Shown here: one piece after another, positions 213-21,653 of the stretch
How positions within the stretch are numbered: position 1 is the stretch's first letter
Layout of the letters: every line of letters begins with the position of its first letter
NCBI GenBank assembly: GCA_048885535.1
Contig: JBHLLO010000047.1
Coordinates: forward strand, 1-22,294
Origin: Candidatus Hermodarchaeota archaeon
GTDB lineage: Archaea; Asgardarchaeota; Lokiarchaeia; Sigyniarchaeales; SOKP01
Length of the DNA: 22,294 nt
Reading direction: 5' to 3'
The notes under the pieces: model-generated
What the model was told of the DNA's origin: nothing
Seen by the model: the letters and a program-made list of their open reading frames with translations, nothing else
Database searches by the model: none
Translations under genes and position numbers: made by a program

Positions 213-2150
213 TCAATTTAGTTCCTCTTGGTCTTCACCATTTAATCCGATTAGTTTCTTGAATTCTGGCAAATCTTTAATGTTTACCAGGAAGCGATCA
301 GTTTTCGCCCATTCTTTAAACTTCTTATCGATTTCGATTGCCTTTCTCAATAATTCTAAAGCTTTTTTACTATTTTTATTTACTGCTTCAATACAGGCGC
401 AATTATATATAATATCACCATTGGTGGGATAACCCTTTATAGCTTTATCAAAATACTGCTTAGCTTTTCCATAATTTCCCAAAAACAGGTTTGCATTTCC
501 AACATTATTCTGTACAACAGCTATATCTGCTTTATGAGCCTTTTTCTCTCTATAAGGTAATGCTTCGAGATCTTCTAAAGATTCTAGATACTTCTTTTCT
601 GCTTTAGCGTATTGGTAAGTGTTCAAGTAAAAATGTCCAACTTTATTTTGCGCTACCATATAATCAATAGAATATAGACTAGGATCTCGCTCTGAGAGTT
701 CTTTTTTGGTATTTAAGTGTTCAAGATACATCTCTTCTGCATCTCCAAGTCGTCGTAAATGAATATATAGGGTTGCTAGATCTTCTTGAATAATTGCGAG
801 ATAAGGAAGTTGTTTATCAGGGTATTGTTCGGCGAGCTTACTCCTAATTTTTAAAGCTTCAAGATACATCCGTTCAGCTTCATTAAGTTTATTCATTTCA
901 ACGTAATTCAATCCCAGATTGCTATAGGTTGTAGCCACATCAGCTAAGTGACCATCATAACATGTTTTTGCATACAATTTCTTTAATGTTGGCTCATCCA
1001 AAACAGTCCCTTTAGATTCTCCCAAAAGGTCTAGATCGATATAAACATGGCCAATTTCTTCCTGACTTTTATTAAGATCAGGTAAATAGATGTCATGAAA
1101 CTCCTTTAATGTCTCCCTGTAATCCTCAAAAGCTTCCTGACACAACTTCTCAGGATCCAAATCGATAGGTAAATCAACCTCTGGTTTCTTATAAATGGGA
1201 GTTTCTGGCTTTCCTTCGAATTTGATATCTTCCTCCTCAATTGTAAAAATATCCTTGTATTTTTCTTCTACTTCATTGTAAAGGTTCAGTGCTTTGAGAA
1301 AGATTTTTTCTGCTTCCTCAAATCTTTTGAGATCCGCATAGAGATTTCCCAGATGATTATGAACTGTTGCAACGTAAGGTAAGTAGATTTTGTAATAAGT
1401 TTTGGCTAATTCCTTATAAGTCTCTAATGCATCTAAATAAGCTTTTTCCGCTTCCTTCTGTCTTCCAGCATCAGCATAAAGATTCCCAAGCGCTACCAAG
1501 ATCGGAGCTTTATATTTATCTTCTAATCCAACCATCTTCTCGCCAATTACAATAAGCTCTGGGATTCCAAAACCAGCCACTCGCAGCATATTGTAAACTC
1601 CTAGGAATCCTATTGCAAGCTCGTCATTAATAGCAATTTGGGATTGATGATGCAAAATTTCTGTAACGTTGTAGTATTCTTCTGGGAAAATTTTACTCTT
1701 TTCTTCATAATAGGCTACAGCCTTTTCATGGCAGCTTTTATCGGCTAACTTTAGCATCGCTTTCTGAACGTACTCTGATGCAAAATCAAGAGTTCCTTCC
1801 TGCTCCCCCTTTTTAATTAATAATCCCGTTTCTACCAATTTGTTTATCTTATCTTGAACATTGCCCCCATTGTAGGATTTTTCGACGGTTTTACGGTCAA
1901 TATTAGTTTTTATTTTGGTATTCAATACGCTTAAATTTTTGAGCAATTCTATAGCCCCAGAAGAAGTAGAAAGAATTTTTTCTATGATTTTTGGATAAAG
2001 ATCGATTATAGCTTCCTTTTTCTTGAAATCAAAAGTCTCTAATTCATCCAAATGCAGAACTTGATAATTATTTTCTATAAGTTTTCTCAATATTTCATGG
2101 TTTTTGGGAATTTCTTTTATAATCTTTGCTAATTTTTCCGGTAGTGTTAT
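213..2150 (-). CDS. TPR protein with STAND-type helical/winged-helix N-terminus; effector-less, NTPase-less paralog of 18396..21653
   Basis: 625-aa ORF from TTG 2090; frame open to 2156 and homology continues upstream, so the start may be ATA 2150. Shares LSVLNT.(I/L).TNIDR, (C/S)HEKA..YYE, 46-aa YLP.VA....NLG.LY TPRs and C-terminal YN.AC...K.KALE.L.KAI..D with 18396..21653. Confidence 0.85.
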   Translation of the reverse strand: MTLPEKLAKIIKEIPKNHEILRKLIENNYQVLHLDELETFDFKKKEAIIDLYPKIIEKILSTSSGAIELLKNLSVLNTKIKTNIDRKTVEKSYNGGNVQDKINKLVETGLLIKKGEQEGTLDFASEYVQKAMLKLADKSCHEKAVAYYEEKSKIFPEEYYNVTEILHHQSQIAINDELAIGFLGVYNMLRVAGFGIPELIVIGEKMVGLEDKYKAPILVALGNLYADAGRQKEAEKAYLDALETYKELAKTYYKIYLPYVATVHNHLGNLYADLKRFEEAEKIFLKALNLYNEVEEKYKDIFTIEEEDIKFEGKPETPIYKKPEVDLPIDLDPEKLCQEAFEDYRETLKEFHDIYLPDLNKSQEEIGHVYIDLDLLGESKGTVLDEPTLKKLYAKTCYDGHLADVATTYSNLGLNYVEMNKLNEAERMYLEALKIRSKLAEQYPDKQLPYLAIIQEDLATLYIHLRRLGDAEEMYLEHLNTKKELSERDPSLYSIDYMVAQNKVGHFYLNTYQYAKAEKKYLESLEDLEALPYREKKAHKADIAVVQNNVGNANLFLGNYGKAKQYFDKAIKGYPTNGDIIYNCACIEAVNKNSKKALELLRKAIEIDKKFKEWAKTDRFLVNIKDLPEFKKLIGLNGEDQEELN

Positions 2151-2383
2151 ATTAATTCACTTCCAAATTGTTTTTATTTTATATCATTAATTGAAATTAT
2201 TTGTTCATTATTTCTTCTTTTGTTAAATAAGTATAATAATATTTTATTCATAATAAACTTAAAATTTTGATTCCTCATTATAAGAATTTTTTGTAACAAG
2301 AAAAAATTGTTATTTGAATAATATCTCAAAAGTGGTTTTAATAAACATTTTACAAGAGTGTATATCATTAAATTTACAACTTT

Positions 2384-2474: not shown

Positions 2475-5400
2475 ATGAGTAGTGAATATGTCATTGTTGA
2501 CGATAAAAGGTATAATGTGGAAAATAACCTTTTAAATTTAAGCGGTTTAGGAATTTACGATATTTCGGAAATTGAAGGATTAGATCGCTTACCTAACCTT
2601 ATTGGATTAAACCTTAATAATAATAATCTTACACAGCTTAGAGGCATAAGTCATTTAACTCAACTTCAAATATTATCAGCTGAAAATAATCAGATAAGAA
2701 CAATTACAGGTTTAGAGAACTTAACTGATCTCTTTGCAATAGGGCTTGGTAATAACGAGATAACAGAAATCTATGGGTTAGAAAATCTGATTAAACTCCA
2801 AATTTTAACACTTTCTAGTAATCATATAAGAGAAATCAAGGGCTTGAATAGTCTCATCAACCTCCAGACTTTATACATCAATAACAATGAAATTAAAGAT
2901 ATTAAGAGTTTAGAAAACTTAAGGAATCTGCAAAGATTAAGACTTGATGGCAATCAAATTACAGAAATCAGAGGTTTAGAAAATCTAACCTATCTACAAG
3001 AATTACAACTTCATAATAATTTGATCAAAGAAATTAGAGGATTGAATAATCTCTCGAACCTTCAGACTTTATACATCAATAACAATGAAATTAAAGAAAT
3101 TAAGGGTTTAGAAAATTTAAGGAATCTACAGACTTTAACTCTTAATAATAATCAAATTGAAGAGTTTAAGGGGATAGGAAATTTAGTTTATCTACAACAA
3201 TTACAGCTCCATAATAATCAGATCAGAGAAATTAAAGGTGTAGAAAACCTGACTAACCTTCAGCTCTTGCATCTTGATGGGAACAGAATTGAAGACATAA
3301 GACCATTAGCAAAACTAATCAATCTCCAAGAATTATTCCTTTTTGATAATCAGATTAAGGATATAAGCAGCTTGACGAATTTAACTAATCTGGTAGATTT
3401 ACGCCTTTTCAATAATCAAATCATAGATATCAAAGCTATAGAAAAGATGCTTCAACTCGAAAAATTGGCACTTGATGGTAATCAAATTACAGAAATCAAA
3501 AGTTTGGATAAATTAACCAAAATTCAAATATTACAACTCCATAATAATCAGATCAAAGAAATCAAAGGTTTGGAAAATCTGACTCAAGTTCAGTTGTTAT
3601 ATCTTAATAACAATCAAATTAGGGAGATTAAAGGTTTACAAAATCTTAGTTCTTTACAAGAATTGTATCTCAATAACAATGAGATTAAAGAAATTAAGGA
3701 TTTAGAAAATATGGTTAATTTACAAAGGTTAACACTTGAAAATAATCATATCACTGAAATTAAGGGCTTGGAATTTTTAAATAATCTGCAAGATTTAAGA
3801 CTTTTTAATAATAATATCGCAGAGATCAAGGGTCTGGAAAATCTGACTAACCTTCAAATTTTATATCTCGATGATAATAAAATTGATGAAATAAAAGGTT
3901 TAAAAAATCTGAGAAATCTCCAAGAGTTATACCTATTTAATAATCAGATTAACGAAATTAGGGGTTTAGAAAGTTTAACTAATCTCAACGCATTGCATCT
4001 TTATAATAATCAAATTACAGAAATTAAAGGATTGGAACGTCTGACTAACCTTCAAATACTATTACTTGATAGTAATAAGATCAAGGAAATAAAAGGCTTA
4101 AGTAATTTGCACAATCTCCAACAATTATTCCTTTTTGGTAATGAGATCACGAATATGAATGGTCTAGAAAATTTAATTAATCTACAAGATTTACGCCTTT
4201 ATAATAATCAAATCACAGAAATTAAGGGCATGGAAAAAATGGTTTATCTCCAAAAATTAGCACTCGATGGTAATCAAATTACAGAAATCAAGGGCTTGGA
4301 AAACTCACCTGGTATTCAGATATTACAGCTCCATAGAAATCAAATCTCAGAGATTGAAGGTTTGGATCATCTTACTAACCTCCAAATTTTATATCTAAAT
4401 GAAAATAAAATTGAGGAAATAAAAGGTTTAGAAAATATGAGAAATCTTCAAGAATTATACCTTTTTAACAATCAAATTGGGGAAATAAAGAACTTAGATA
4501 ATTTAACCATGCTTAAGGCATTGCATCTTTATAATAATCAAATAACGGAGATTAAAGGGTTGGATAATCTTACTCAACTTCAAGTTTTGTATCTCGATGG
4601 CAATAGAATAGAAAAAATAGAAGGTTTAACAAATTTGATGAATTTACGAGATTTATCCCTTTTTGAAAATCAGATTAAGGAGATAAGGGGTCTAGAAAAC
4701 TCAGTTAATCTGGAAGATTTACGTATTTACAATAATGAAATTACACAAATCACGGGCTTAGAAAATCTGTTTAATCTCAAAAAATTAGCACTTGATGGTA
4801 ATCAGATTACAGAAGTTAAGGGCTTGGAAAATTCAACGAACATTCAAATTTTACAACTCCATAATAATCAAATAAGAGATATTAGTGGATTGCGAAATAT
4901 GATTAACCTTACGGTTTTACATCTTGATGGTAATCAAATTGAAAACATAGAAGCATTGAGAAGTTTGATCAATCTTGAACAATTATTCCTTTTTAATAAT
5001 CAAATTAAAGATACTAGTAGCTTAAGAAATTTAACTCGTTTAACAGATCTACGCCTATTTAATAACCAAATTACAGAAATCAGGGGTTTAGAGAACATGA
5101 TATATCTCCAAAAATTAGGACTCGATGGTAATCAAATTACTGAAATCAAGGGCTTGGAGAACTCACCTTACATCCAAATATTACAACTCCATAACAATCA
5201 AATTTCAGAGATTAAGGGTTTAGAAAATCTTACTAACCTTGAGGTATTGTATCTAAATAATAATAATATTAGGGAAATAAAAGGGTTAACAAATGCTGTC
5301 AATCTCCAAGAATTGTTTCTAAATAATAACCAGATTCAGGAAATTAAAGGGTTAGACCATTTGACTAATATGCAAAATTTATATCTTAATAACAATAATA

Positions 5401-7667
5401 TTACTGAAATAAAAGGTTTAGAAAACATGGTTAATCTTCAAAAATTGACACTAGAACATAATCAGATAACAGAAATCAAGGGTTTAGAGAGACAATTCAA
5501 TCTGCAGTTATTACAACTCCAGATCAATAATATCACACAGACCAAGGGCTTAGAAAATTTGACTAATCTTCAAACCTTAAATCTCAGTGATAACAAAGTT
5601 GAGGATGTAAAAGGGCTAGCAAACTTGAGGAATCTTCAAGAATTATTCCTATTTAGTAATCAAATTAAGGATACTAAAGGTTTAGAAAATTTAAGAAATC
5701 TTCAACAACTACAAATCTATTATAATCAGATCGTAGATATAAAGGGTTTAGAAAATTTGATCAAACTTCAGAAATTATTCCTTTTCGGGAACAAAATTAA
5801 AAACATCACACCATTAACAAATCTAAGTAATCTTGAAATATTAGCCCTAAATAATAATGAAATCGCAGAAATCAAGGCCTTAAGAAATTTGATTCGCCTA
5901 CAAGTATTATTTCTTGAAAATAATCAAATAGAAGAAATTAAGAGTTTAGAAAATTTAACTAATATGCAAGAGTTGTATCTTGATAGTAATATGATAAGAG
6001 AGATCAAGGGATTGGAAAACATGGTTTATCTCCAAAAATTGACTCTCACTAATAACCAGATCACAAAAACCAAAGGTTTGGAAAACTTACAGAATCTGCA
6101 GTTATTAGAACTACAGAATAATCAAATTACAGAAATCGAGGGTTTGGAAAAACTGAGTAACCTTCAGAAGTTAAATTTAGAGAATAATAAACTCTCAGAA
6201 ATTAAGGGATTAGAAAGGATGGTTAATCTTGAATATCTAAATCTGAGTAGAAACGAAATAGTAAAGATGAATAACTTGAATAATTTAAAAAATTTGCAAG
6301 AATTATATCTTATAGGCAATAAAATTGAGGAGATTACCAATTTAGACAATTTAATAAATCTTAGAAAATTATTTCTTAAAAACAATAATATTGTTGAGGT
6401 TAAGGGTTTAGAAAACCTTGAAAATCTTGAATTCGTGAGTTTATTCGGAAATCCAATTAAAATGGAGGAACAAGAATACGTTAGTAAAGACATTCCTACA
6501 ATCTTACAGTTTTGCAAAGAAAAAGTAAGGGGGGTCATAAAAGAGATTCCAAAAGAAGAAGAGAAAATTGAAGAAAGAGTAGCAAGAGTTATTGATTTTG
6601 AATTTCTAAGTCGGCGAGCTGTAGGTGTGGATGGGTTTAAAAAAGCCTTTAATATAGCTTTTGAAAGGTATCATGAATTACTAGATTCTCCAGAAGATTA
6701 TTCAGATCTTGACTCTTCATTTCTTATTTCTAAAAAAGATGAAGTAATGAATAAATATCAATTTCCGACATTATACGATTTAGTATTAATTATGAAATAT
6801 GATTTAAATTTAGCCAAAAAAGTCGGAAAGTATTTATTAGATGAAGGTGCTATACCAAAATTCCCTAGAATCCCTGATTTTGAAAAAGTCAAAGATTTCA
6901 TAATTACTTTATCAAAATATGAAAAATATTATCCAATAGATACACTATGCGAAGAAAAGGAGATTGATTGCATCCATCTTAAGGACTATATCAGAGAGTT
7001 GATTGATTCTCAAGAATTAAACGTAAAAATTGATGAGAATGAATCTAAAATTATCTTTCTTGGGCAAGAAGGAAAAGTAAAAGCACAAGAGACTGTTCCG
7101 AAATCGGAAGCTACTGCAATGGAGGACGAAAAGAAAGAAAAACGATTTGAAGAACGCACTGACAAAACAAAACCGGGTCCGCCAGAAGAACCTATTAGCC
7201 CTCCTGCTCCAAAACCTATTCCTCCTCCTCCTCCACCTGAGGGAAAGATAAAGATATTCTTAAGCTATTCAAGTTTAGATTCAACAATATTCAATATTGA
7301 GGAAATTGTAAAGGAACTAAAAACCAATATTTTAAATGTTCAAGTAGATTGGATGGATAACCCAAAAAATACGGAAAGAAAATGGATGGATTTTATGAAT
7401 GAAAAAGTACCTCAATGTGATATTTTATTGCTAATCTGTTCGCCTAATTCAAAAAACTCAGATATGGTAATAGAAGAATGGCAAATGGCTGTAAGAAAAA
7501 AGAAGGTTGTAATCCCTATCTTTTATGAGAACGAATACATTCCAGATATACTTGAAACTTATAAAGGTTTTAAGTTTAATATATTTGACCCTAGAACCTC
7601 TATTAAAGGACTAATAGACCATATTAGAGGAAGATTGGAAGGACAAGTTCTTGATCGAATGGTTTAG
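2475..7667 (+). CDS. Giant cytosolic LRR (SDS22-like) + PCI-like winged helix + polyproline linker + TIR domain protein
   Basis: 59 in-register 22-aa LxxLxxLxLxxNxIxxIxGLxx units plus an N-terminal partial one. C-terminal KIFLSYS...CDILLLICSPNSKNSDMVIEEW...VIPIF is a TIR (TIR_2-like) domain with conserved Glu. No signal peptide or TM segment. Confidence 0.93.
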   Translation: MSSEYVIVDDKRYNVENNLLNLSGLGIYDISEIEGLDRLPNLIGLNLNNNNLTQLRGISHLTQLQILSAENNQIRTITGLENLTDLFAIGLGNNEITEIYGLENLIKLQILTLSSNHIREIKGLNSLINLQTLYINNNEIKDIKSLENLRNLQRLRLDGNQITEIRGLENLTYLQELQLHNNLIKEIRGLNNLSNLQTLYINNNEIKEIKGLENLRNLQTLTLNNNQIEEFKGIGNLVYLQQLQLHNNQIREIKGVENLTNLQLLHLDGNRIEDIRPLAKLINLQELFLFDNQIKDISSLTNLTNLVDLRLFNNQIIDIKAIEKMLQLEKLALDGNQITEIKSLDKLTKIQILQLHNNQIKEIKGLENLTQVQLLYLNNNQIREIKGLQNLSSLQELYLNNNEIKEIKDLENMVNLQRLTLENNHITEIKGLEFLNNLQDLRLFNNNIAEIKGLENLTNLQILYLDDNKIDEIKGLKNLRNLQELYLFNNQINEIRGLESLTNLNALHLYNNQITEIKGLERLTNLQILLLDSNKIKEIKGLSNLHNLQQLFLFGNEITNMNGLENLINLQDLRLYNNQITEIKGMEKMVYLQKLALDGNQITEIKGLENSPGIQILQLHRNQISEIEGLDHLTNLQILYLNENKIEEIKGLENMRNLQELYLFNNQIGEIKNLDNLTMLKALHLYNNQITEIKGLDNLTQLQVLYLDGNRIEKIEGLTNLMNLRDLSLFENQIKEIRGLENSVNLEDLRIYNNEITQITGLENLFNLKKLALDGNQITEVKGLENSTNIQILQLHNNQIRDISGLRNMINLTVLHLDGNQIENIEALRSLINLEQLFLFNNQIKDTSSLRNLTRLTDLRLFNNQITEIRGLENMIYLQKLGLDGNQITEIKGLENSPYIQILQLHNNQISEIKGLENLTNLEVLYLNNNNIREIKGLTNAVNLQELFLNNNQIQEIKGLDHLTNMQNLYLNNNNITEIKGLENMVNLQKLTLEHNQITEIKGLERQFNLQLLQLQINNITQTKGLENLTNLQTLNLSDNKVEDVKGLANLRNLQELFLFSNQIKDTKGLENLRNLQQLQIYYNQIVDIKGLENLIKLQKLFLFGNKIKNITPLTNLSNLEILALNNNEIAEIKALRNLIRLQVLFLENNQIEEIKSLENLTNMQELYLDSNMIREIKGLENMVYLQKLTLTNNQITKTKGLENLQNLQLLELQNNQITEIEGLEKLSNLQKLNLENNKLSEIKGLERMVNLEYLNLSRNEIVKMNNLNNLKNLQELYLIGNKIEEITNLDNLINLRKLFLKNNNIVEVKGLENLENLEFVSLFGNPIKMEEQEYVSKDIPTILQFCKEKVRGVIKEIPKEEEKIEERVARVIDFEFLSRRAVGVDGFKKAFNIAFERYHELLDSPEDYSDLDSSFLISKKDEVMNKYQFPTLYDLVLIMKYDLNLAKKVGKYLLDEGAIPKFPRIPDFEKVKDFIITLSKYEKYYPIDTLCEEKEIDCIHLKDYIRELIDSQELNVKIDENESKIIFLGQEGKVKAQETVPKSEATAMEDEKKEKRFEERTDKTKPGPPEEPISPPAPKPIPPPPPPEGKIKIFLSYSSLDSTIFNIEEIVKELKTNILNVQVDWMDNPKNTERKWMDFMNEKVPQCDILLLICSPNSKNSDMVIEEWQMAVRKKKVVIPIFYENEYIPDILETYKGFKFNIFDPRTSIKGLIDHIRGRLEGQVLDRMV
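2589..6460 (+). repeat. Coding tandem repeat, 66-nt period, 59 LRR units
   Basis: Manual parsing of the translation into 22-aa units without indels. Confidence 0.92.
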
Positions 7668-7684
7668 ATTAAAATCTTTACTAA

Positions 7685-7694
7685 TTTTTTTTTT
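7685..7694 (+). terminator. Oligo-T archaeal terminator after the LRR-TIR gene
   Basis: Run of 10 T about 18 nt after stop 7667. Confidence 0.55.
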
Positions 7695-7781
7695 GAAATT
7701 ATTTACCAATCACACTTTACCTTCTATTTAAAAAATTACCTTATATTTTTTTTCTTTAAAATCCACTTTTGAGAAAAAGGG

Positions 7782-7805
7782 AACTGTTATTCTAACTGTT
7801 ATTCT
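7782..7805. repeat. Perfect 12-bp tandem duplication (AACTGTTATTCT x2)
   Basis: Directly visible at 7782-7793 and 7794-7805. Confidence 0.85.
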
Positions 7806-8846: not shown

Positions 8847-8886
8847 AAATCTAAAATTAATTTCTTTTCTTTTTAAAGATTCATAA

Positions 8887-11491: not shown

Positions 11492-11505
11492 GAAAACTTT
11501 ATAAA
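11492..11505 (+). promoter_or_regulatory. Putative BRE/TATA box for the receptor-TIR gene
   Basis: GAAAACTTTATAAA matches the archaeal purine-rich BRE + TTTATAWA consensus, 100 nt upstream of ATG 11606. Confidence 0.5.
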
Positions 11506-11605
11506 TTTAAGAATCAGTAATGTTATTGAAATCATACAATTATGTAAAAAGTTCCTTATATAGAGAAATTCAATAATTTCATTTATTATAAAGTGGTAAA
11601 AATCT

Positions 11606-14600: not shown

Positions 14601-14656
14601 CAGTCGTTAAAAAACGGCTTGGAGAACCCATTAAAGTTGAATTGAACAATAGGTAA
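11606..14656 (+). CDS. Single-pass membrane receptor: signal peptide, 14 LVIVD beta-propeller repeats, 2 Ig-like domains, TM helix, cytoplasmic TIR
   Basis: N-terminal MKNIRVKVKLVLLLILALIVIP; 14 x 42-aa VxVSGDYAYV....GLAVIDISDP; two WY(T/S)(I/L)DxG...IRFYANDxxGN modules; TM 14087-14164 followed by KRARYKRRRK; TIR LMISYSHED...SDALLLFCSKKSLNSEFVIDEW...IIPIF. Confidence 0.93.
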   Translation: MKNIRVKVKLVLLLILALIVIPNLVLTNQRDIKASSDEKKPMEDITPQPPKEAAIYYEPTTGSAHDVFVSGDYAYVGATTSGLAVIDISDPTDPGTPVDLALTSFAYDVFVSGDYAYVAAYGSGLAIIDISDPTSPVLVTYESTTGAAHGVFVSGDYAYVGTTSSGLAVIDISDPTNPGLPVYETLTDWAYGVYVSGDYAYVGATSSGLAVVDISDPTSPALVTYENTSGFSYDVFVSGDYAYVADGNYGLAVVDISNPANPGIPIYEDTNDWAHDVYVSGDYAYVGDDTSGLAVIDISDPTDPKVSIYEDTTSSVAGVYVSGDHAYVGAGGSGLAVIDISKPTNPRLPVYEDTSGTAFGVYISGDYAYVADHNTGLAVIDISDPTNPGAPIYEDTSGSARDVYVSGDYAYVADDTYGLAVIDISNPTNPGLPFYEDTDGAARGVCVSGDYAYISDYNYGLAVIDISDPTNPGAPFSESTNGFARSVYVSGDYAYLGVGSYGLAVINISNPTDPVITAYEDTSGTAYGVYVSGDYAYVADYGYGLAIIDISDPTNPGTPIYETNVNSAYDVYVSGDYAYVASYDDGLAVIDISDPTNPGVPIYEDMANWAMSVYVSGDYAYLADYNSGLAVIQVRERYDIVDPLITILYPNVNNNLFGTTAPSFNVKFKDIYPGLDTLWYTIDGGINNRTFVTNGSINQNLWLSRGNGTVNIRFYANDSSGNVNWKDIIVRKDILAPSITINAPTPNQEFETTPSYDLSIIEGNLDKIWYSLDNGATYKFITSLSGTIDQAVWDGISEGSVTIRFYANDTLGNYDWEDVNVIKVVIPFWKEIWFWALVISVLILSVFIIPVVVKRARYKRRRKEVKKMIDSYVLTHDVKLMISYSHEDAPKFQIPKVSEMLGKYDKIKQVIYSQKDTRDDFIRYMDKNIRESDALLLFCSKKSLNSEFVIDEWTAARALKKPIIPIFIDKSYIPSLLSAKLGVPFYEKKLSDTVEEIYAVVKKRLGEPIKVELNNR
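11774..13510 (+). repeat. Coding tandem repeat, 126-nt period, 14 LVIVD units
   Basis: Recurrent AGYGGAGATTATGC...GATATTTC at 126-nt spacing; 14 units counted in the translation. Confidence 0.92.
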
Positions 14657-14743
14657 GCTTAGATAGGACTTTTCATAAAATAATCTTTAAATTGTTTATC
14701 GAGAATTAGTATAAAGAATTCTGTTAAAGAAAATAACCAAAAA

Positions 14744-14760
14744 CCGTTAAACTTATAAAT
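14744..14760 (+). promoter_or_regulatory. Putative BRE/TATA box for the vWA gene
   Basis: CCGTTAAACTTATAAAT about 67 nt upstream of ATG 14827; SD-like GAGGG at 14816-14820. Confidence 0.45.
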
Positions 14761-14826
14761 AAATACGTTGCTTTTATAAAATGTATTAATACTACATTTA
14801 TGTCAAATTAGAAATGAGGGTTTAAA

Positions 14827-17088
14827 ATGCCTATTGAGGGTGAAACAATACCAAACATTTACTTGTCTGGAGAAGATTTTATGCATAATTATGAATCATT
14901 CCCTCCAGAGGATGATCTCTCTGGAAAGACTATTTTACTTTCTTTTCTAGATTATGAGGAAATCATTCCAGGTAATAGTACAATTCTTATAAATTGTCTA
15001 TTAAATTTATGTCAGCTGTATTCTACTCACTGCATTCAAATAGTTATAGTCTTTCCTGTATTAAATGGTACAACCGAACTAACTGTTAAGACATGGCTAG
15101 AAGGACTTGGTGTCAATTTTCCTGCTATCCACAGTTTTGATATTTGGAGAGATTTTATGACAGGTATAACAGATGGAACAGAGGAAGTGAGACCCCATTC
15201 TTTTATTCTCGAGAAGATCGATCCCGATAACTGGATTATTAGAAAACGATATTGTGTATTACCTCCAGTATGTAGTGATTTGGAAGATTTCTTATTAAGC
15301 TTCATAGATGTACGTGAGCCTATAGATTTAGAAATGGTTATGGATGTCTCTGGGAGTATGAACAGCATTCCTCCTAATGCGAATGAAACGAAGTACGAGA
15401 TGATGAAGAAAGCCATTACTATAGTTGGAACCTATTTAAAGGATAATGCGCATTGTGATGATAGAATGGGATTGATTTGGTTTACGGATGAGGCAAGTGA
15501 TTACTCAAGAAATAATCAAAAATTATTTCGAATTAAAACTAATTGGGATGAGTTAAGTGTTCAGGTTAATAACCATGGAACAGGTAACTGTACTGCTATG
15601 GGAGCAGGTTTACAGACAGCAATTAATACCTTATCTTCAAGTAACCAGAAATTTGTAATTTTATGTACCGATGGAATGCAAAATATAAACCCAATGGTAT
15701 TAGACCTTACAGCACCCGATGGTTCTGTATACTATGCAATTGTAAATGATGACGTACGATATCGCGAGTGTGGACCACATTCTCAGGTTGAACCTTCAGG
15801 TACAGATATTTCTAGCTACAATACTTGTGTTCATACTATTGGCATTGGGATTATAGAAGATTATGATTTAATTCTAGATGGTATAGCTACCGAAACACAA
15901 GGTTTTTACCAAGAAACGAATAATCCTGGAGACGATCTATTAGGGGATTATTTCGTAGCACTCCTTGATTGTTTGGGTAGAGGTTCTCCCTCAATTCTAT
16001 ATATTAATAACGGGAATTTATCTATAGAAGAGCATGAAAAATCAGAGATCTTCCATCTCAACAGCTCTGTTCGAAAAATAACTGTAATCATTTCTTGGAA
16101 AAAATCACAAGGGAGTAATTTCATGTTCTGGTTGTATACCCCTGATGGGGTGCTCTTAGATCTACATAATGAGATGAGAATCTATGAGCACCATTGTATG
16201 GCAACAATATATTTACCTAAACGACAAAATGGGGACAATTTGGAGTATATAGGTGAATGGCGTATGATGATTCGAGGCGAGATACCTAATAGTTCTGCTG
16301 ATTATAATGTAATTATCATTGGGGAGGATAAAGATATCAAATTGGTTTTTGATTTTCCAAGAAAACGATTTGAAGTTGGCGACCTACTCCCAATTAAAGT
16401 TTTTATTTTAAAGAAGAAAAAACCATTAGCTATTGAGCCTAAGGAGATCACTATAGAAAAGAAACTTTTACTTACACCGCTTCCTGAACTTATAGCTAAA
16501 TATAAAATATCTCCAAATGAGTTGTTAGAAAAAACGAAAACCATACCAGATAGAGCTCCTAAGAACCTTCTAAATCTGAAACTTAAAGTTATGACTTCTG
16601 ATCCAAAATTTCAAAAAAGTTTAATACCTGATATTAAACGATTCTCTCTTCAAAGAGGAAATCTTGAGTGTAAATTTGAAAAAGAGGAAGTTCTCATCCC
16701 TATTGCTCTGGAACAACCAGGGACACATAATTTTAAAATAAGAGTCCGATACGAGAGTCCTGAAGAGGGTCCTATATGTCGTACACATATGATTTCGATA
16801 ATAGTGGAACCTGGTAAAGTCGATCCTAAACAGTCTGATTTCAGAAAGAAAGGCAAGATGATTTATATTACTCCTCGTAATAAAAAGGGTCAATTATTTG
16901 GTCCAGGATATAGCCATAAGTTTAAACTGCAAGCTGGGGAAAAAGAATATGATATCGAATTCAAGGACTTATTGGACGGTACATACCAGATTGAACTTCC
17001 AGAGAAAGTAGTGGAAGAAATAAAAGAGAAAAAACTTGATGTTGACATCATATTCCGTAAGAATGTAATCTGGAGAAGAAAATTATAA
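14827..17088 (+). CDS. vWA domain protein with N-terminal redoxin/thioredoxin-like fold and C-terminal beta-sandwich/Ig-like domains
   Basis: Intact MIDAS: VMDVSGSM, GNCTAMGAGL, VILCTDG, VHTIGIG. N-terminus GETIP...LSGKTILLSF...IQIVIV...NFP...PHSFILE follows the AhpC/TSA-TlpA pattern without CxxC. C-terminal ISW...LYTPDG...GEW and ITPRNKKGQLFGPG...DLLDGTY motifs. Confidence 0.85.
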   Translation: MPIEGETIPNIYLSGEDFMHNYESFPPEDDLSGKTILLSFLDYEEIIPGNSTILINCLLNLCQLYSTHCIQIVIVFPVLNGTTELTVKTWLEGLGVNFPAIHSFDIWRDFMTGITDGTEEVRPHSFILEKIDPDNWIIRKRYCVLPPVCSDLEDFLLSFIDVREPIDLEMVMDVSGSMNSIPPNANETKYEMMKKAITIVGTYLKDNAHCDDRMGLIWFTDEASDYSRNNQKLFRIKTNWDELSVQVNNHGTGNCTAMGAGLQTAINTLSSSNQKFVILCTDGMQNINPMVLDLTAPDGSVYYAIVNDDVRYRECGPHSQVEPSGTDISSYNTCVHTIGIGIIEDYDLILDGIATETQGFYQETNNPGDDLLGDYFVALLDCLGRGSPSILYINNGNLSIEEHEKSEIFHLNSSVRKITVIISWKKSQGSNFMFWLYTPDGVLLDLHNEMRIYEHHCMATIYLPKRQNGDNLEYIGEWRMMIRGEIPNSSADYNVIIIGEDKDIKLVFDFPRKRFEVGDLLPIKVFILKKKKPLAIEPKEITIEKKLLLTPLPELIAKYKISPNELLEKTKTIPDRAPKNLLNLKLKVMTSDPKFQKSLIPDIKRFSLQRGNLECKFEKEEVLIPIALEQPGTHNFKIRVRYESPEEGPICRTHMISIIVEPGKVDPKQSDFRKKGKMIYITPRNKKGQLFGPGYSHKFKLQAGEKEYDIEFKDLLDGTYQIELPEKVVEEIKEKKLDVDIIFRKNVIWRRKL

Positions 17089-17099
17089 TAATAACTTTA

Positions 17100-17107
17100 T
17101 TTTTTTA
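17100..17107 (+). terminator. Oligo-T terminator after the vWA gene
   Basis: T run about 12 nt after stop 17088, in a convergent intergenic region. Confidence 0.5.
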
Positions 17108-17220
17108 TTAATTCCATGTTTTTAAGCTGTTTTAATAATAGAAAATGAATTAAGCTAATTGTATTTATAACAATTTAGCAACCTAGGAAAAGAGATTTTT
17201 ACATTTTTTCTCCCTAATTT

Positions 17221-17520
17221 TTACTCCTCTGAGGTTTGCTTTTCTCTATTTAAGCTCTCTAATGCATCCGCAGCAGAGCTTACAACAATCAGTATCTTCA
17301 ATGAAGCAGATTTGCATCCTTTCTCATTAAGTACAGTGGATAAGCGGAGTAATTCTAAGACGGCTTCAACTAGTTCTTTTTTTCCAAAATATTCACTAAG
17401 CATATCTTGTAATTGTTCAACGGCATAATCATCGAATTCTATTGGCTCAAATCCCTCATAAGCCATTTCTAATGCCTTTTCTATAAGAGGATGAAGTGGT
17501 CTTTTCTGATTTCCAGTCAT
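17221..17520 (-). CDS. Small acidic alpha-helical hypothetical protein, tandem paralog copy 2
   Basis: 99 aa; SD AAGGTGA 6 nt before ATG; about 74% identical (hand count) to 17616..17915. Confidence 0.88.
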   Translation of the reverse strand: MTGNQKRPLHPLIEKALEMAYEGFEPIEFDDYAVEQLQDMLSEYFGKKELVEAVLELLRLSTVLNEKGCKSASLKILIVVSSAADALESLNREKQTSEE

Positions 17521-17614
17521 TTTTATTCACCTTACTAGTTATTTTCTTTATAAGGTTGTTTAATGCTGCTGTAGCACGTTCCACAACCATTATCATTTCA
17601 TTTGATGCAGAATG
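17521..17614 (-). pseudogene. C-terminal remnant of a diverged paralog of the 99-aa family
   Basis: Translates HSASNEMIMVVERATAALNNLIKK, aligning to KSASLKILIVVSSAADALKEFEK; 5' part missing. Confidence 0.65.
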
Positions 17615-17615
17615 T

Positions 17616-17915
17616 CTAATCTTTTAATGTATTTTCTTCTTTTTCAAATTCCTTTAATGCATCGGCAGCAGAGCTTACAACAATCAGTATCTTCAATGAA
17701 GCAGATTTGCATCCTTGCTCATTTAGAACAGCGAATAAGCGAAGCAATTCCATAACGGCTTCAATTAGATCCTGCTTTCTATGATATTCTTTAAGCATAT
17801 CTTGCAGTTGTTCGACCGCATAATCATCGAATTCAATTGGCTCAAACCCTTCATAAGCCATTTTCAGTGCCCTTTCAACAATAGGGTGAAGTGGTCTTTC
17901 TTGATTTTCAGTCAT
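17616..17915 (-). CDS. Small acidic alpha-helical hypothetical protein, tandem paralog copy 1
   Basis: 99 aa; SD AGGTGA 6 nt before ATG; conserved with 17221..17520 including synonymous changes. Confidence 0.88.
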   Translation of the reverse strand: MTENQERPLHPIVERALKMAYEGFEPIEFDDYAVEQLQDMLKEYHRKQDLIEAVMELLRLFAVLNEQGCKSASLKILIVVSSAADALKEFEKEENTLKD

Positions 17916-18062
17916 TTTTACTCACCTGATTTTCGTTATATTGAAGATCCTTTAGTGATTCTTTAACAAATTCCACAACCTTTAATATTTTCTTTGATGC
18001 TGAATGACATCCTCATTTATCGAGAAAGTAAGCTAATTTTATCTTTCTTGATCTTCTGTCAT
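17916..18062 (-). pseudogene. Internally deleted pseudogene of the 99-aa family
   Basis: ATG 18062 gives MTEDQER* (cf. MTENQERP). In another frame it continues IKLAYFLDK*GCHSASKKILKVVEFVKESLKDLQ (cf. LRLFAVLNEQGCKSASLKILIVVSSAADALKEFE). Confidence 0.75.
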
Positions 18063-18336
18063 TCATACTTTTTTGATTTGTTTCTAAACAGATTTCTAGA
18101 TGAACATATATTTCGTACTTATAATTGTTGTGTTTAGTATGCAAACTAGACCAAAGATTTATTATTATGAATTTCTTTGAAATATATCCATTGAAATCTA
18201 GAAATCGAGCCTTCATAATTTAGAAAGATTAGAAATAAGAAAGATTTGGAAAAAGAAAGAATTAAAATTATTTATACGCCCTTTCACCACACTTCAGTAT
18301 TTTATCAATTTTTTTGTTTTCAGTTATGATTTGAAA

Positions 18337-18353
18337 GATAAAAACTTATATTA
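18337..18353 (+). promoter_or_regulatory. Putative BRE/TATA box for the DUF4062-STAND gene
   Basis: GATAAAAACTTATATTA about 43 nt upstream of ATG 18396; SD-like GATGTGA at 18385-18391. Confidence 0.45.
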
Positions 18354-18395
18354 TGAAGTTGAATTAATCCTTTCATTACATTATGATGTGATCTA

Positions 18396-21300
18396 ATGCT
18401 TAAAATTTTTTTAAGTTCTACCTATCGAGACTTAACAGATGCTCGCTCAAAAATTCTTCAACAGTTAAATTCTGCTTTTAAGGTGGTTGGGATGGAGGAA
18501 TTTATCCCAGATGGTTCTGATTCGCAAGAGGTTTGTATCGGTAATTTAAAAAAAGTGAAAGGAAATGGGATTGTAATTTTTCTAATTTCTCCATATTATG
18601 GTTCCCTCATGGAATCATGTTCGCTTAAAGAAGATTGTAAAGCGGAGTGCCCCATGAAAGGTGACGGTCATATTTCATATACTCATTGTGAGTATAAAAC
18701 AACTATAGCTGAGGGAATTTTGCATCAAACATATCTTGTCGCAAAGGGCTGGGACGCTCCTGATGTAAAGAAGGGGGCTTTGCAATTCAAGGAGGAAATT
18801 GGAAAAGAATATCTCGGGTTTGTTGATATCGAAGATCCTAACTTATTAGGGTTAATTTGCAGTAACTTGGCAACAAAAATTACTGAATGGCATGTGCAAA
18901 ATAAATTAGAGTTCCCTAAATTTGTTGATAGGGAGGAAAAACTTAATGAAATCATTGAAAATATCAACGGGAAAGTCGAAGTATGGGGTGTTGGTGGTGT
19001 GGGAAAAACTGCATTAATAGAAGTAGCCCTTCTTATTCAAAAGTTAAAGGGAAAAAGTATAATTACAATTGGAACACCGAAAACTTATGCAAGTGGTTCT
19101 GGATTTAAGGACTTTAGGGATAAGTCTGAAGAAGCTCAATATATAGCGGATTCACCAGATCAAATTACAATTTATGATGTTATAAATGCCTTAGTTAAGG
19201 TCAAATTAATATCTAATGTCGATGAGGTTATGAAAATGCCTTCCAATGAAAAGATCGCACTCTTATCTAAGATAGTTAGAAGAGAGAAAAATCTGATTCT
19301 ATTTATCGACGACTTTCATTTAGCAACTGAAGAGGTGGTGGAGATAGCAAAATCAGTAGATCATGTTATCCTTTCTTCTCGAAGGAATTCCTATATCGCA
19401 AAAGACATTTATTTAAGTGGCATTGATAAAGAAGAGAGAGAGAATCTGATAAATCTTTTTTCTATAGAGCCACTTCCTAAGGATGTTAAGAATTTGATTG
19501 CTAATATTACCGAGGGTCATCCTGTATCTACTGCAATACTTGTAAAGAATTATCAGAAGATCAACTTTAATAACCTCAAGGGTTTTGATCTTAAGAATGC
19601 TAACCAAGGGCAGATTAATGATTTTTTTAGAAGAGTGATTGAGGAAATATTCTCTTCAAACCCTAATGCATTACAATTGCTTGAAGATCTTTCTGTATTA
19701 AATACGGATTTAGAAACTAATATTGATCGAGAAAGTATTGAAAAAATATATTCCTCTGAAGATGTTTCTAATGATTTTAATGAGTTAATAGACGCGGGGA
19801 TGTTGAAAAAGAAGGAAGGCTCCCATAGCACATATGAATTTTCTTTCAAACATATTCAAGATGCTCTTGAAGATAAAGCATCTGCTGAGAGCCATGAAAA
19901 AGCGATCCTATATTATGAAACAAAAGAGAAACTCATGCAAGACAAATATATGATTGATGACGAGGTAGAGATTCTTTATCACAAAGTAAAATCAAATCCT
20001 ATAGAACAATTAGTGGATGAATTGCTTGAGATAAAAGAAAGACTATATCCTATCCATTATGGGTTCAAGCGTTTAATTCATGTAGGTGAAGAATTAAAGA
20101 CTTCAGTTAATGAAATAGATAAGGCATATATAGATTTGACGCTTGGACTTTTATTCAGAGATTTAAGGCGATTTAAAGAGGCTGAAACCATGTTTTTTAA
20201 CTCATTAAATGTTTATAAAAAGTTAGCAGAGCAGAATCCTGAAGACTATCTACCGGAAGTTGCCTTAACGCAGAATAACCTTGGAGCACTATATTATGAT
20301 TTAAAAAGATTTAAGGAAGCAGAAACGATGTATCTTGATGCTTTAAAGTTAAGAAAGGAGCTAGCAGAAAAGAATCCAGATACATATCTATCTGATTTTG
20401 CTTTAACTCAGAATAACCTTGGAGCTTTATACAATGATTTAAAGAGATTTGAGGAGGCAGAGACTATGTTTCTAGACGCATTAAAGTTAAGAAAGAAGTT
20501 AGCAGAGCAAACTCCCGAAGCATATCTACCCGATCTTGCCATCACGCAGAATAGCCTTGGAACTTTATATACTTATTTAAAGCGGTTTGAGCAGGCAGAA
20601 ACCATGTATCTTGATGCATTAAAACTAGGAATGAAGTTAGCAGAGCAGAATCCTGATGGCTATTTGCCCGATGTTGCTATGACAAAGAATAACCTTGGAG
20701 CTTTATATACTTATTTAAATCGATTTGAGGAGGCAGAGACCATGTATCTTGACACATTAAGCCTAAGAGTGAAGTTAGCAGAACAGAATCCAGAAACCTA
20801 TTTACCTGCTGTCGCTTTAGCTCAAAATAACCTTGGAACTTTATATGTTAATTTAAGGAGGTTTGAGGAGGCAGAAACCATGTATCTTAAAGCATTAAAT
20901 ATAAGAATTAAGTTAGCAGAAAAGAATCCTGATGTATATCTACTCGACATTGCCATGACTCAGAATAACCTTGGAAACTTATATATTTATCTAGAGCGAT
21001 ACCAGGATGCAGAGACCATGTATCTTAACTCATTAAACGCTTTTAAAGAATTAGCAAGTCAAAATCCTGATGCATATCTTTCTAACGTTGCTATGGCTCA
21101 GAATAATCTTGGAGTTTTATATAATGATTTAAATCGGTTTGAGGTGTCAGAGACCATGTATCTAAACTCATTAAATACTTATAAAGAGTTAGCAGAACGG
21201 AGTCCCGATGCCTATCTCCCCGCTCTCGCAGAGACTCAGAATAACCTTGGAAGCTTATATGCTGATTTAAGGCGGTTCAAAGCAGCAGAAACCATATATC

Positions 21301-21653
21301 TCGATGTATTAAACACGAGAATGAAGTTAGCAGATCAAAATCCCGATATATATCTCCCTGCTGTTGCAGATACTCAAAATAATCTTGGAATTTTATACAT
21401 TCAAATGAAAAGATACGAAGAAGCGGAGAATTATTTTAATAACATATTGGATAAATATCCTAATTACGGTTCTGCTTGGTATAATAAAGCGTGTCTTGCA
21501 TCCCTAAAGAATAATAAAGAAAAAGCTTTAGAATATCTTAATAAAGCAATCGATCTTGATCAAACTTATATTGATATGGCAAAATCTGATGAGGACTTTA
21601 ATAATTTACGAGGTTTAGAAGAATTCAAGAAATTATTGGGTGAATTAATTTAA
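18396..21653 (+). CDS. NLR/Avs-like protein: DUF4062 (TIR-like) + STAND P-loop NTPase + TPR sensor
   Basis: KIFLSSTYRDL...R, GMEEF, YGS, ISYTHCEY (DUF4062); FVDREE, Walker A VWGVGGVGKT, Walker B LILFIDD, GHP (GxP); nine 46-aa TPRs plus two canonical TPRs and a YNKAC...DEDFNNLR cap. Confidence 0.92.
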   Translation: MLKIFLSSTYRDLTDARSKILQQLNSAFKVVGMEEFIPDGSDSQEVCIGNLKKVKGNGIVIFLISPYYGSLMESCSLKEDCKAECPMKGDGHISYTHCEYKTTIAEGILHQTYLVAKGWDAPDVKKGALQFKEEIGKEYLGFVDIEDPNLLGLICSNLATKITEWHVQNKLEFPKFVDREEKLNEIIENINGKVEVWGVGGVGKTALIEVALLIQKLKGKSIITIGTPKTYASGSGFKDFRDKSEEAQYIADSPDQITIYDVINALVKVKLISNVDEVMKMPSNEKIALLSKIVRREKNLILFIDDFHLATEEVVEIAKSVDHVILSSRRNSYIAKDIYLSGIDKEERENLINLFSIEPLPKDVKNLIANITEGHPVSTAILVKNYQKINFNNLKGFDLKNANQGQINDFFRRVIEEIFSSNPNALQLLEDLSVLNTDLETNIDRESIEKIYSSEDVSNDFNELIDAGMLKKKEGSHSTYEFSFKHIQDALEDKASAESHEKAILYYETKEKLMQDKYMIDDEVEILYHKVKSNPIEQLVDELLEIKERLYPIHYGFKRLIHVGEELKTSVNEIDKAYIDLTLGLLFRDLRRFKEAETMFFNSLNVYKKLAEQNPEDYLPEVALTQNNLGALYYDLKRFKEAETMYLDALKLRKELAEKNPDTYLSDFALTQNNLGALYNDLKRFEEAETMFLDALKLRKKLAEQTPEAYLPDLAITQNSLGTLYTYLKRFEQAETMYLDALKLGMKLAEQNPDGYLPDVAMTKNNLGALYTYLNRFEEAETMYLDTLSLRVKLAEQNPETYLPAVALAQNNLGTLYVNLRRFEEAETMYLKALNIRIKLAEKNPDVYLLDIAMTQNNLGNLYIYLERYQDAETMYLNSLNAFKELASQNPDAYLSNVAMAQNNLGVLYNDLNRFEVSETMYLNSLNTYKELAERSPDAYLPALAETQNNLGSLYADLRRFKAAETIYLDVLNTRMKLADQNPDIYLPAVADTQNNLGILYIQMKRYEEAENYFNNILDKYPNYGSAWYNKACLASLKNNKEKALEYLNKAIDLDQTYIDMAKSDEDFNNLRGLEEFKKLLGELI
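20121..21362 (+). repeat. Coding tandem repeat, 138-nt period, nine 46-aa TPR units
   Basis: Recurrent CAGAATAACCTTGGA and GCAGA(A/G)ACCATGTATCT at 138-nt spacing. Confidence 0.9.

Follow-up and report, generated by a model that had tools for sequence, protein, structure and literature searches.

Sensor-coupled TIR, SIR2 and DUF4062 genes clustered on a contig of an Asgard archaeon

Four sensor–effector genes on one contig

We analysed a stretch of 22,294 bp (hereafter the window), which is the entire contig C47 (JBHLLO010000047.1) of an assembly of 3,093,598 bp in 112 contigs (91.6% complete). An initial annotation had described it as an innate-immunity-like island of a probable Asgard archaeon. 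The taxonomic assignment agrees with our searches: the 16 loci encoding close relatives of one of its proteins, D, were titled Promethearchaeota (12), Promethearchaeia (2) or uncultured archaeon (2), and the lineage reads Archaea; Promethearchaeati; Promethearchaeota, the kingdom Promethearchaeati being the Asgard group. The listing of open reading frames (ORFs) gives ten sizeable ones (A to J) on the contig, four of which couple a repeat-rich putative sensor to an effector domain. Gene B (2475-7667, + strand, 1730 aa) encodes a predicted cytosolic protein with leucine-rich repeats (LRR_4) and a C-terminal TIR_2 domain. Gene D (8887-11286, - strand, 799 aa) combines SIR2_2 with tetratricopeptide repeats (TPR). 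Gene E (11606-14656, + strand, 1016 aa) has the features of a receptor, i.e. a signal/anchor, 14 LVIVD repeats, two repeats of another kind, a transmembrane (TM) segment and TIR_2. Gene I (18396-21653, + strand, 1085 aa) is NLR-like and consists of a DUF4062 (NIR) domain, a P-loop STAND-type NTPase and TPR. The ORFs and Pfam place these four architectures where the initial annotation had put them, and its repeat periods are correct (D, 40 aa; I, 46 aa).

These genes are clustered. The genome contains nine TIR_2 matches in eight genes, eight SIR2_2 genes and one DUF4062 gene, which makes 17 genes with an effector domain. Four of the 17 lie within 11.1 kb of the window, 0.7% of the genome, where 0.12 would be expected. 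When 17 genes were placed at random 200,000 times, four or more fell inside 12 kb with P = 3.7e-4. As in defence islands, defence-type genes are packed here far more densely than in the genome at large, and mixed clusters of these genes recur elsewhere (see below), in line with the island of the initial annotation. Further pairs of effector genes are present on contigs C9 and C70 of the same genome.

The clustered genes are not arranged as an operon. Transcription diverges at A|B, D|E and H|I and converges at C|D and F|G, and E-F alone was counted as a same-strand pair. The four sensor–effector genes are separate transcription units, and because of this gene order we regard them as several independent systems rather than one. 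The idea of a single system was abandoned on these grounds (separate units, with three pairs divergent or convergent) and on those of the distribution in relatives given below.

The contig is well supported. Contigs assembled from run X2 cover positions 3068-20888 with 0 differences, and those from run X4, a further sample of that study and not flagged as a source, span the B-C-D, E-F and H-I junctions and the spacer between D and E, with 0-3 differences. Read depth is even (16-30 in run X2) apart from the last 650 bp. Since the contigs of both runs bridge the gene junctions and depth is even, an assembly chimera is not apparent as far as can be seen. The GC content of the window (0.32) is close to that of the genome (0.30). 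Over positions 21638-22294 the depth increases about 6-fold (135 against 16-30 in X2, 198 in X4), and variant letters are numerous. The sequence at this end, which carries the partial gene J, is probably repeated or common to several genomes or copies, and likely broke the assembly. Tandem repeats are detectable in the DNA of the LRR (2819-5488), LVIVD (11792-13501) and TPR (20160-21397) arrays, with 64-78% matches. Scans of the window returned zero tRNA genes and zero Rfam families, and a sigma-70 promoter and terminator scan remained at or below the level of shuffled sequence, with a model that is not applicable to archaea. Names from NCBIfam such as internalins and FimS (sub-threshold) were discarded as repeat-driven matches.

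Putative sensors and candidate catalytic residues

The coupling of repeat sensors to TIR, SIR2 and DUF4062 domains claimed by the initial annotation was recovered, and candidate catalytic residues are kept. We start with the TIR proteins. The LRR_4 matches of B (E 1.4e-211, 33 stretches) correspond to about 59 units of 22 aa at nt 2532-6464. Its TIR_2 domain (aa 1594-1702, nt 7254-7580; E 1.1e-13, 52 bits against a cut-off of 28) includes Glu1668. The two are separated by an unannotated middle region (nt 6465-7154), on which Pfam returned nothing even at E 5, and by a Pro-rich linker. Hydropathy revealed no hydrophobic segment in B. The middle region and the TIR are common to WD40-TIR proteins of ~1230 aa in six genomes of the same genus. 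PADLOC matched B to ThsB, at the domain level only (8.8e-6).

In E, the LVIVD beta-propeller (14 repeats with a period of 42 aa, nt 11783-13525; E 1.1e-151) precedes an internal duplication of a ~95-aa beta-sandwich-like module (aa 641-832, nt 13526-14101; 39% identity, E 2e-18). The TIR_2 domain (aa 881-986, nt 14246-14563; E 1e-12) contains Glu952, and Pfam also gave E a weak ThsB_TIR match. The protein has only two hydrophobic segments, one at aa 8-26, corresponding to the N-terminal signal/anchor, and one at aa 835-853 (nt 14108-14164), corresponding to the TM. The latter is followed by RARYKRRRK and hence, by the positive-inside rule, the propeller would be outside the cell and the TIR inside. 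The initial annotation had named the duplicated region Ig. Pfam shows no match for it, and what is left of the name is a lead, as the module is nearest to bacterial immunoglobulin (Ig)-like language-model clusters in the Atlas (score 0.90).

The TIR domains of the genome and its relatives share a set of conserved residues. In an alignment of 12 of them, S15, D20, L69, S78, E84 and P97 are invariant. The TIR of E searched as a single sequence against solved structures found nothing and a profile was needed; the TIR profile of the genome matched 9m0n (a TIR-TPR protein, 1.1e-11), TIR-1/SARM1 (9.3e-6) and Cat1 (1e-5). The Glu that is invariant in 12/12 (E1668 of B and E952 of E) is aligned with the Glu of TIR-1/SARM1, Cat1 and 9m0n, and is nearly invariant across 51 database representatives. 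At the level of sequence, the TIRs of B and E fit the NADase type, with a putative catalytic Glu conserved in the alphaC region.

This TIR module has many partners. The subfamily counts 436 representatives at E<=1e-30. A strongly hydrophobic segment is found in 46 of the top 148, and the 51 representatives of at least 420 aa include eight with beta-helix/NosD, six with LRR, four with WD40 and four with PCI domains. In relatives, the module occurs with 18 WD40 and a middle region like that of B (L087), with a periplasmic binding domain and Ig-TM (L059), with PCI and with a Zn-ribbon. We also noted a protein of 582 aa on contig C26 of the same genome (L002:5990-7735 (+)) with TIR_2 at both ends, and four to seven TIR stretches per protein in P0236, P0247, P0254 and P0258, which are among the top database representatives.

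B resembles some known proteins, albeit with differences. Like SARM1/TIR-1, Cat1 and 9m0n, it joins sensor repeats to a TIR without an NTPase; its N-terminal sensor has ~59 LRRs and is separated from the C-terminal TIR by an unannotated middle domain. We found no literature paper for 9m0n. Plant TNL proteins have the order TIR-NTPase-LRR, whereas in B the LRR come first and there is no NTPase. The plant order is found instead in a protein encoded on contig C9 (see below). In the BcTir/Tpr system, as given in the accessible part of its description, a TIR gene is paired with a TPR gene.

Relatives of E differ mainly in their ectodomains. The Ig-TM-TIR part is found in P0001 and P0002 (90% and 81% identity) under another propeller-like ectodomain. 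Two further loci of this genome encode a split form: C29 (L060:6305-10282 (-) and L060:5685-6308 (-)) and C95 (L061:3941-7810 (-) and L061:3294-3944 (-)). In these, a surface protein of ~1300 aa has propeller-like and Ig-like repeats, a TM and a conserved cytoplasmic tail of 67 aa, and its gene overlaps by 4 nt that of a soluble TIR protein of 207-216 aa. The tail and the N-terminus of the TIR protein may make up one Swt1-like HEPN domain, an idea supported by a single sub-threshold match (C95 tail to positions 3-36 of Swt1-like HEPN, E 0.01), or a frameshift may join the two. E shares with the animal Toll-like receptors (TLR) a signal/anchor, a repeat ectodomain, a single TM and a cytoplasmic TIR, and the split receptor with its small TIR protein recalls the receptor-plus-adaptor logic of TLRs. 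In contrast, E has LVIVD and Ig-like repeats instead of LRR in its ectodomain, its TIR belongs to TIR_2 and keeps the NADase Glu, and the LRR-TIR protein of the window, B, has no TM. The homology demonstrated between E and TLRs is that of the TIR fold, and no descent is implied. From the initial annotation we retain the surface-receptor topology of E and the NLR-like character of I, while its parallel with the TLR/NLR division of eukaryotes becomes an analogy of topology, with a propeller as ectodomain and an enzyme-type Glu. Papers retrieved with 'LVIVD' and 'TIR' look unrelated, and none was found in the searchable literature for 'TIR domain' with 'Lokiarchae'.

The effector of D is of the SIR2 type. 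The protein begins with a SIR2-like (SIRim-type) domain (nt 10297-11286), within which SIR2_2 covers aa 109-224 (E 6.1e-12), and continues with TPR of 40-aa period (nt 8917-10254; TPR_12 5.6e-71). It contains the motifs GAGCS23, TTNFD111-115 and HGS162-164; G23, A24, G25, N113, D115 and H162 are invariant in all ten members of the family that were aligned. The family profile matches the solved Sir2 structures 8in8 (8.6e-4) and 8w9l (2e-3) with the motifs aligned, and FAM118B could also be aligned. D carries the motif set expected of a SIR2-type NADase, i.e. the Rossmann GxG, the Asn/Asp of TTNFD and the putative catalytic His. PADLOC gave SIR2-type domain matches (1e-5 to 3e-8) without a system. 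Hydrophobic segments are absent from D, as from I, A and F.

D shares with DSR1/DSR2 and with the SIRim protein FAM118B a large sensor of helical repeats behind an N-terminal SIR2_2 with GAGxS, TTNFD and HGS. DSR2 reportedly works through its C-terminal helical sensor. Sequence matches of D to FAM118B and to Sir2 proteins of the SIR2-HerA/SIR2-APAZ type are weak. Unlike DSR proteins, D matches no PADLOC DSR model, its sensor is made of canonical 40-aa TPR, and its family is hugely expanded in Promethearchaeota, with eight copies here. Public records title the members merely 'tetratricopeptide repeat protein', and we did not find the phrase 'SIR2-TPR' in the searchable literature.

Some SIR2-TPR genes have their own neighbours. 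In a subgroup of 725-740 aa (L041, L042, L046, L049, L050, L051), an ORF of ~107-116 aa lies ~60 bp downstream on the same strand, followed at L041, L046, L050 and L051 (four of six) by an ORF of ~401 aa; D has neither. At L091:14839-15876 (+), an isochorismatase-family protein is encoded, together with a WD40 protein, between a SIR2-TPR gene and a gene similar to G and H of the window. The isochorismatase family is one that we take to include nicotinamidases. A conserved membrane partner for SIR2-TPR was considered and rejected, the neighbours being inconsistent.

I has the three parts of an NLR-like protein. DUF4062 (aa 3-102, nt 18402-18701; E 2.6e-11, 44 bits against a cut-off of 24.7) is the sole copy in the genome. 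The NTPase (about nt 18921-19565) has a Walker A motif GVGGVGKT at 198 and a Walker B motif ILFIDD at 301, and reaches ATPase_2 and AAA_16 of Pfam only under their cut-offs. It is followed by a helical/winged-helix region extending to nt 20075, about nine TPR units of 46 aa (nt 20076-21470) and a TPR end domain. Across 26 members of the family, C75, C81, C85, H97, C98, E99, G198/G200/G203/K204/T205 and D305/D306 are invariant. The N-terminal 468 aa as a single sequence found nothing among solved structures; a profile of the family was needed and matched PH0952, a solved archaeal STAND TPR sensor, in the NTPase region (1.1e-9) and the DUF4062 of KpSwz (4.5e-5). E99, which lies at the end of the Pfam match, may be the equivalent of the proven catalytic Glu. 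The cluster formed by C75, C81, C85, H97 and C98, present in I and all 25 relatives compared, sits directly before Glu99 and could bind a metal or act as a redox switch. The accessible parts of the preprints on DUF4062 do not describe this Cys/His insert.

The architecture of I has counterparts in characterised proteins. According to the accessible parts of recent preprints, the DUF4062-STAND-TPR protein PsAvs2 senses a phage terminase, depletes NAD+ through E108 and protects from phages (10.64898/2026.09.04.749371), the DUF4062 of KpSwz (Swarozyc) is an NADase with catalytic E97 (10.64898/2026.05.01.722283), and a third 2026 preprint, on Evangelion, describes DUF4062 as a TIR-like NADase. The order of parts in I is that of PsAvs2 and the NIR-STAND-TPR type, with DUF4062 first, a STAND NTPase with both Walker motifs next and TPR at the C-terminus; I also has a conserved Glu, E99, as a candidate counterpart of the catalytic one. 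More generally, it has the tripartite order of effector, NTPase and sensor of Avs and NLR-like STAND proteins, with intact Walker A and B. It differs from PsAvs2 in being archaeal, in matching no Avs model of PADLOC, in its Cys/His insert, in an NTPase that is nearest to PH0952 and in its recently amplified array of 46-aa TPR. Judging from its sequence, I is an archaeal member of the known DUF4062-STAND-TPR kind. The initial annotation did not recognise the combination of genes as a named system; PADLOC indeed names none, but the DUF4062-STAND-TPR gene is of the NIR/Avs2 type of the 2026 preprints. The matches of I in PADLOC are TPR and a spurious DndE alone, with no curated Avs1-5 model.

Members of the I family exchange parts. 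The order of I is found in at least 109 homologs, mostly of Promethearchaeota. The STAND core occurs with a TIR (P0060, 49% identity), with SIR2_2 (P0108) and with LRR replacing the TPR (P0045). The number of TPR units varies between orthologs (764 aa in G015 against 1085 aa here), and the sensor arrays grow and shrink fast.

Gene A (213-2090, - strand, 625 aa) is a relative of I. It consists of a winged-helix-like linker, TPR with the same 46-aa period and a TPR end-of-group domain. Pfam recognises TPR families only, and NCBIfam TPR_END_plus (1.5e-15). A aligns solely to residues 385-1082 of I (33% identity, E 9e-97), and neither an NTPase/P-loop motif nor an effector domain was found in it. 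The effector-less STAND-TPR paralog of the initial annotation is thus a TPR paralog of I without an effector, but not a STAND protein. The possibility that it is a decayed fragment was rejected, as full-length orthologs (72-74% identity) are present in two genomes of the same genus. A is probably a sensor-only relative of I that acts as a partner or regulator. In both genomes, a gene for a Ras/Roc-type small GTPase precedes the ortholog on the same strand (L056:7906-9846 (-) with L056:9859-11667 (-); L055:729-2669 (-) with L055:2825-3940 (-)). In G021 this gene encodes a GTPase-TIR fusion of 603 aa, 13 bp upstream, and in G019 a GTPase of 372 aa, with two TIR genes close by. This suggests that TPR proteins of the A type work with a GTPase or GTPase-TIR partner. 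The window contains no gene for such a partner; the genome has 53 Ras-like matches, none with a TIR part.

Distribution in relatives and the remaining genes

The comparison of synteny proposed by the initial annotation showed that the island is not conserved in any of the 40 relatives. Individual components have very different distributions. Orthologs of I across the full N-terminal 560 aa are found in two of the 40 relatives (G015, G019), and DUF4062 in 11 of the 41 genomes. TIR_2 is present in 33 of the 41, with 0 to 15 copies among the 24 genomes of the same genus. TIR genes were found near SIR2-TPR relatives in 0/16 and 2/36 loci, i.e. 2/52, these counts being lower bounds.

Mixed clusters were nevertheless found outside the window. 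On contig C9 of the same genome, a SIR2-TPR protein of 802 aa, 35% identical to D (L001:5352-7760 (-)), is divergent from a TIR protein of 1114 aa (L001:8608-11952 (+)) with the order TIR_2, weak nSTAND3, LRR, which is that of plant TNLs. The pair is flanked by genes for small membrane proteins, one DUF973-like (261 aa) and one of 152 aa. In another family of the same order, a contig (G030:C17; L058, 2-5457) encodes a SIR2 protein cut by the contig end, a TIR protein of 255 aa, a protein of 634 aa with a C-terminal NUDIX and a Zn-ribbon-TIR protein of 326 aa; a NUDIX adjoining a TIR fits NAD/ADP-ribose chemistry. An 8.6-kb contig (L097) encodes a SIR2-TPR protein, a TIR fragment and a DUF4062-TPR-SIR2-TPR fusion. 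This fusion (L097:4104-8402 (+), 1433 aa) has DUF4062, TPR, SIR2_2 and TPR in one chain, and the families of its DUF4062/SIR2_2 combination are also those of P0114, a protein of 1477 aa labelled Thorarchaeota. In G019:C81, the ortholog of I adjoins a TIR gene. The kinds of neighbours recur and their order is not fixed, which is the behaviour of defence islands.

The remaining genes of the window are C, F, G, H and J, of which the initial annotation did not mention C, F, G and H. C (8244-8846, + strand, 200 aa) encodes a 5-TM protein, with about five hydrophobic segments, and is convergent with D at a gap of 40 bp; it matches no family in Pfam, PADLOC or NCBIfam, and no homolog was found beside SIR2-TPR relatives. 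F (14827-17088, + strand, 753 aa), 170 bp downstream of E, has a VWA_2 domain (5.3e-8) with a MIDAS-like DVSGS at 173. Its N- and C-terminal parts match no other family, the Atlas yielding VWA clusters alone, below 0.9, and homologs are found in 0/40 relatives, the single match in the 41 genomes being that of the own genome. G and H (17221-17520 and 17616-17915, - strand) are tandem paralogs of 99 aa, 76% identical, without a family in Pfam, PADLOC or NCBIfam. Their family occurs in 5 of the 24 same-genus genomes, where no TIR or SIR2 lies beside it, and in 2 of the 36 metagenome loci picked for SIR2-TPR (L091:16124-16411; L099:362-682). It may be loosely associated with such islands. J (21686-22294, - strand) is cut by the contig end, with 202 aa read, and has no family in Pfam. 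Apart from the copies of the window itself, homologs of C, F, G, H and J were not found in the 52 loci L001-L052, a set that includes the 16 SIR2-TPR loci. C, F, G and H would be passengers in the island.

In its content, the island is similar to the NTP-dependent conflict systems and defence islands of multicellular prokaryotes (Kaur et al. 2020, 2021), where, as far as the accessible text goes, modular TIR, STAND, TPR/LRR/WD40 and vWA genes are clustered; that text mentions few archaea and no Asgard lineage. F differs from the MoxR-vWA ternary system in having VWA_2 only, without a MoxR partner in the window. The main text of a survey of Asgard defence (PMC11291487) lists NLR and TIR-NLR types and has zero occurrences of 'SIR2'; its supplements may list such genes.

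Immunity, signalling and other readings of the cluster

We favour, with moderate confidence, the reading that the window holds, in a Promethearchaeota genome, a variable cluster resembling a defence island, whose sensor-NADases each work independently as a single protein and are of the abortive-infection type. This immune reading is preferred because of the domain matches above the Pfam cut-offs, the precedent of PsAvs2 and KpSwz, the clustering, the patchy orthologs, the variation in copy number, the swapping of modules and the catalytic-type residues that are kept. The exchange of sensors and effectors (around the STAND core, the TIR module and Ig-TM-TIR) looks typical of immune receptors. 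The enzyme activity, the ligands and the immune role of these proteins are predictions from sequence. The repeat module would bind a non-self or danger ligand, in the cytosol for the LRR of B and the TPR of D and I, and at the surface for the LVIVD propeller of E. Binding would lead to self-association, through an ATP-dependent STAND switch in I and ligand-driven clustering in B, D and E. This would turn on the TIR, SIR2 or DUF4062 domain, which would hydrolyse NAD+ or make an NAD-derived nucleotide, and the infected cell would arrest or die before the invader finishes its cycle.

Several observations weigh against an immune function. SIR2-TPR proteins of the D type are present in 41/41 genomes, with many paralogs and 596 database matches, which is atypical of a sporadic defence gene, although individual orthologs turn over. 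A homolog of E with the same Ig-TM-TIR (G013) carries a Peripla_BP_6 solute-binding ectodomain, which points to the sensing of small molecules, i.e. to signalling rather than virus sensing. Marks of viruses, integrases, tRNA genes and other mobile elements were not found in the window. PADLOC (PADLOC-DB 2.0) recognised zero complete systems in the ten proteins of the window, with domain-level matches alone, and hence no validated defence system among the neighbours. The alignment of I with KpSwz stops at residue 71, before E99. Finally, the home-made TIR hidden Markov model used for the neighbourhood counts overlooked at least one divergent TIR, and these counts are accordingly lower bounds.

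Some of these observations would be expected if the proteins served general signal transduction or cell-cell recognition, which we regard as rather unlikely. TIR, SIR2 and DUF4062 would then be the outputs of sensory receptors in a syntrophic, contact-dependent archaeon, responding to solutes, partner cells or kin via NAD-derived nucleotides, regulated dormancy or death. The Peripla_BP_6 ectodomain and the universal presence of SIR2-TPR speak for it, together with the Ras/Roc GTPase-TIR fusions of the genus, the extracellular-type beta-helix/NosD and hydrophobic segments of the TIR subfamily (8/51 of the long representatives and 46/148, respectively), and the Ig-like module of E, which is common to giant surface proteins. 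On the other hand, patchy orthologs, variable copy number, effector swapping and the co-clustering of three NAD-consuming domains make up a known immune-gene pattern. The bacterial DUF4062-STAND-TPR protein is proven to be anti-phage in the accessible part of its preprint (10.64898/2026.09.04.749371), and Pfam revealed in the window no SLOG, Macro or STING-type domain that could read a TIR signal downstream.

The proximity of TIR and SIR2 genes raises another explanation, that of a coupled Thoeris-like network in which B and E make a nucleotide signal that activates D as executioner, the cluster being one system. The likeness to Thoeris lies in the TIR beside a SIR2, the ThsB domain match of B and the weak ThsB_TIR match of E. 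SIR2-TPR is directly beside a TIR twice in the genome (D|E and C9), so that two of the eight SIR2 genes have a TIR within 3 kb (P ~0.008, by arithmetic from the genome counts), SIR2 is followed by TIR in G030:C17 and L097, and the NUDIX protein of G030:C17 lies between TIR genes. Yet D consists of SIR2_2 and TPR only, without SLOG, Macro or another nucleotide sensor, and the TIR proteins have sensors of their own. Both pairs, D|E and that of C9, are transcribed divergently rather than as operons, and their TIR partners differ in architecture. Adjacency is not conserved: besides the scarcity of TIR near SIR2-TPR relatives, SIR2 and TIR within 10 kb on one contig were found among the 40 relatives only in G030:C17 and perhaps in G037:C178. 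We consider such a network improbable, and the counts of 0/16 and 2/36 loci led us to reject a D-E coupling as a conserved module.

It is also conceivable, at a very low probability, that the TIRs of B and E are non-enzymatic homotypic adaptors, like those of TLR/MyD88, that recruit other TIR proteins. The genome has eight TIR genes, including those of small soluble TIR proteins placed right after receptor genes with a 4-nt overlap (C29, C95), and a tandem-TIR protein (C26). The NADase-type catalytic Glu, invariant in the alignment and nearly so in the 51 representatives, argues otherwise, bearing in mind that enzyme and scaffold roles are compatible. Chance co-location, or an artefact of assembly or binning joining unrelated repeat-rich genes, is scarcely credible: the assembly is of the metagenome type, in 112 contigs, with repeat arrays visible in the DNA and many short joints within the LRR and LVIVD arrays, but the contigs of two runs bridge the junctions, depth is even, GC is similar, the clustering exceeds random placement and similar mixed clusters are found in other assemblies.

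The receptor-like proteins deserve separate mention. A tentative proposal, which we hold to be doubtful, is that this Asgard genus has a family of surface receptors with a single membrane pass, for which TIR is the output on the cytoplasmic side, with a TLR-like receptor/adaptor logic, beside cytosolic LRR-TIR, NLR-like and SIR2-TPR proteins. That such a receptor family is real is favoured by the interchangeable ectodomains, the occurrence of fused or split forms and the enzyme-type Glu that is kept. If this is true, surface TIR receptors could detect virions, solutes or partner cells and pass the signal on by cleaving NAD+, and the prokaryotes most closely related to eukaryotes would have an outside-in receptor/adaptor logic. 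The SIR2-TPR family, the proteins made of sensor, middle region and TIR, and the fused or split receptors with ectodomain, TM and TIR appear to be undescribed in the searchable literature.

The modules TIR, SIR2/SIRim and DUF4062/NIR link the defence of bacteria against phages with the innate immunity of animals and plants, and are found here in the archaeal lineage nearest to eukaryotes. The window alone does not demonstrate that TLRs or NLRs descend from these genes. If the proteins are active, it would offer three candidate archaeal immune sensors (the cytosolic LRR-TIR protein, the NLR-like NIR protein and the surface receptor with its TIR in the cytoplasm), and would draw attention to SIR2-TPR as a very large family. 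With the receptor occurring both fused and split, one could then ask directly whether prokaryotes have outside-in TIR signalling.

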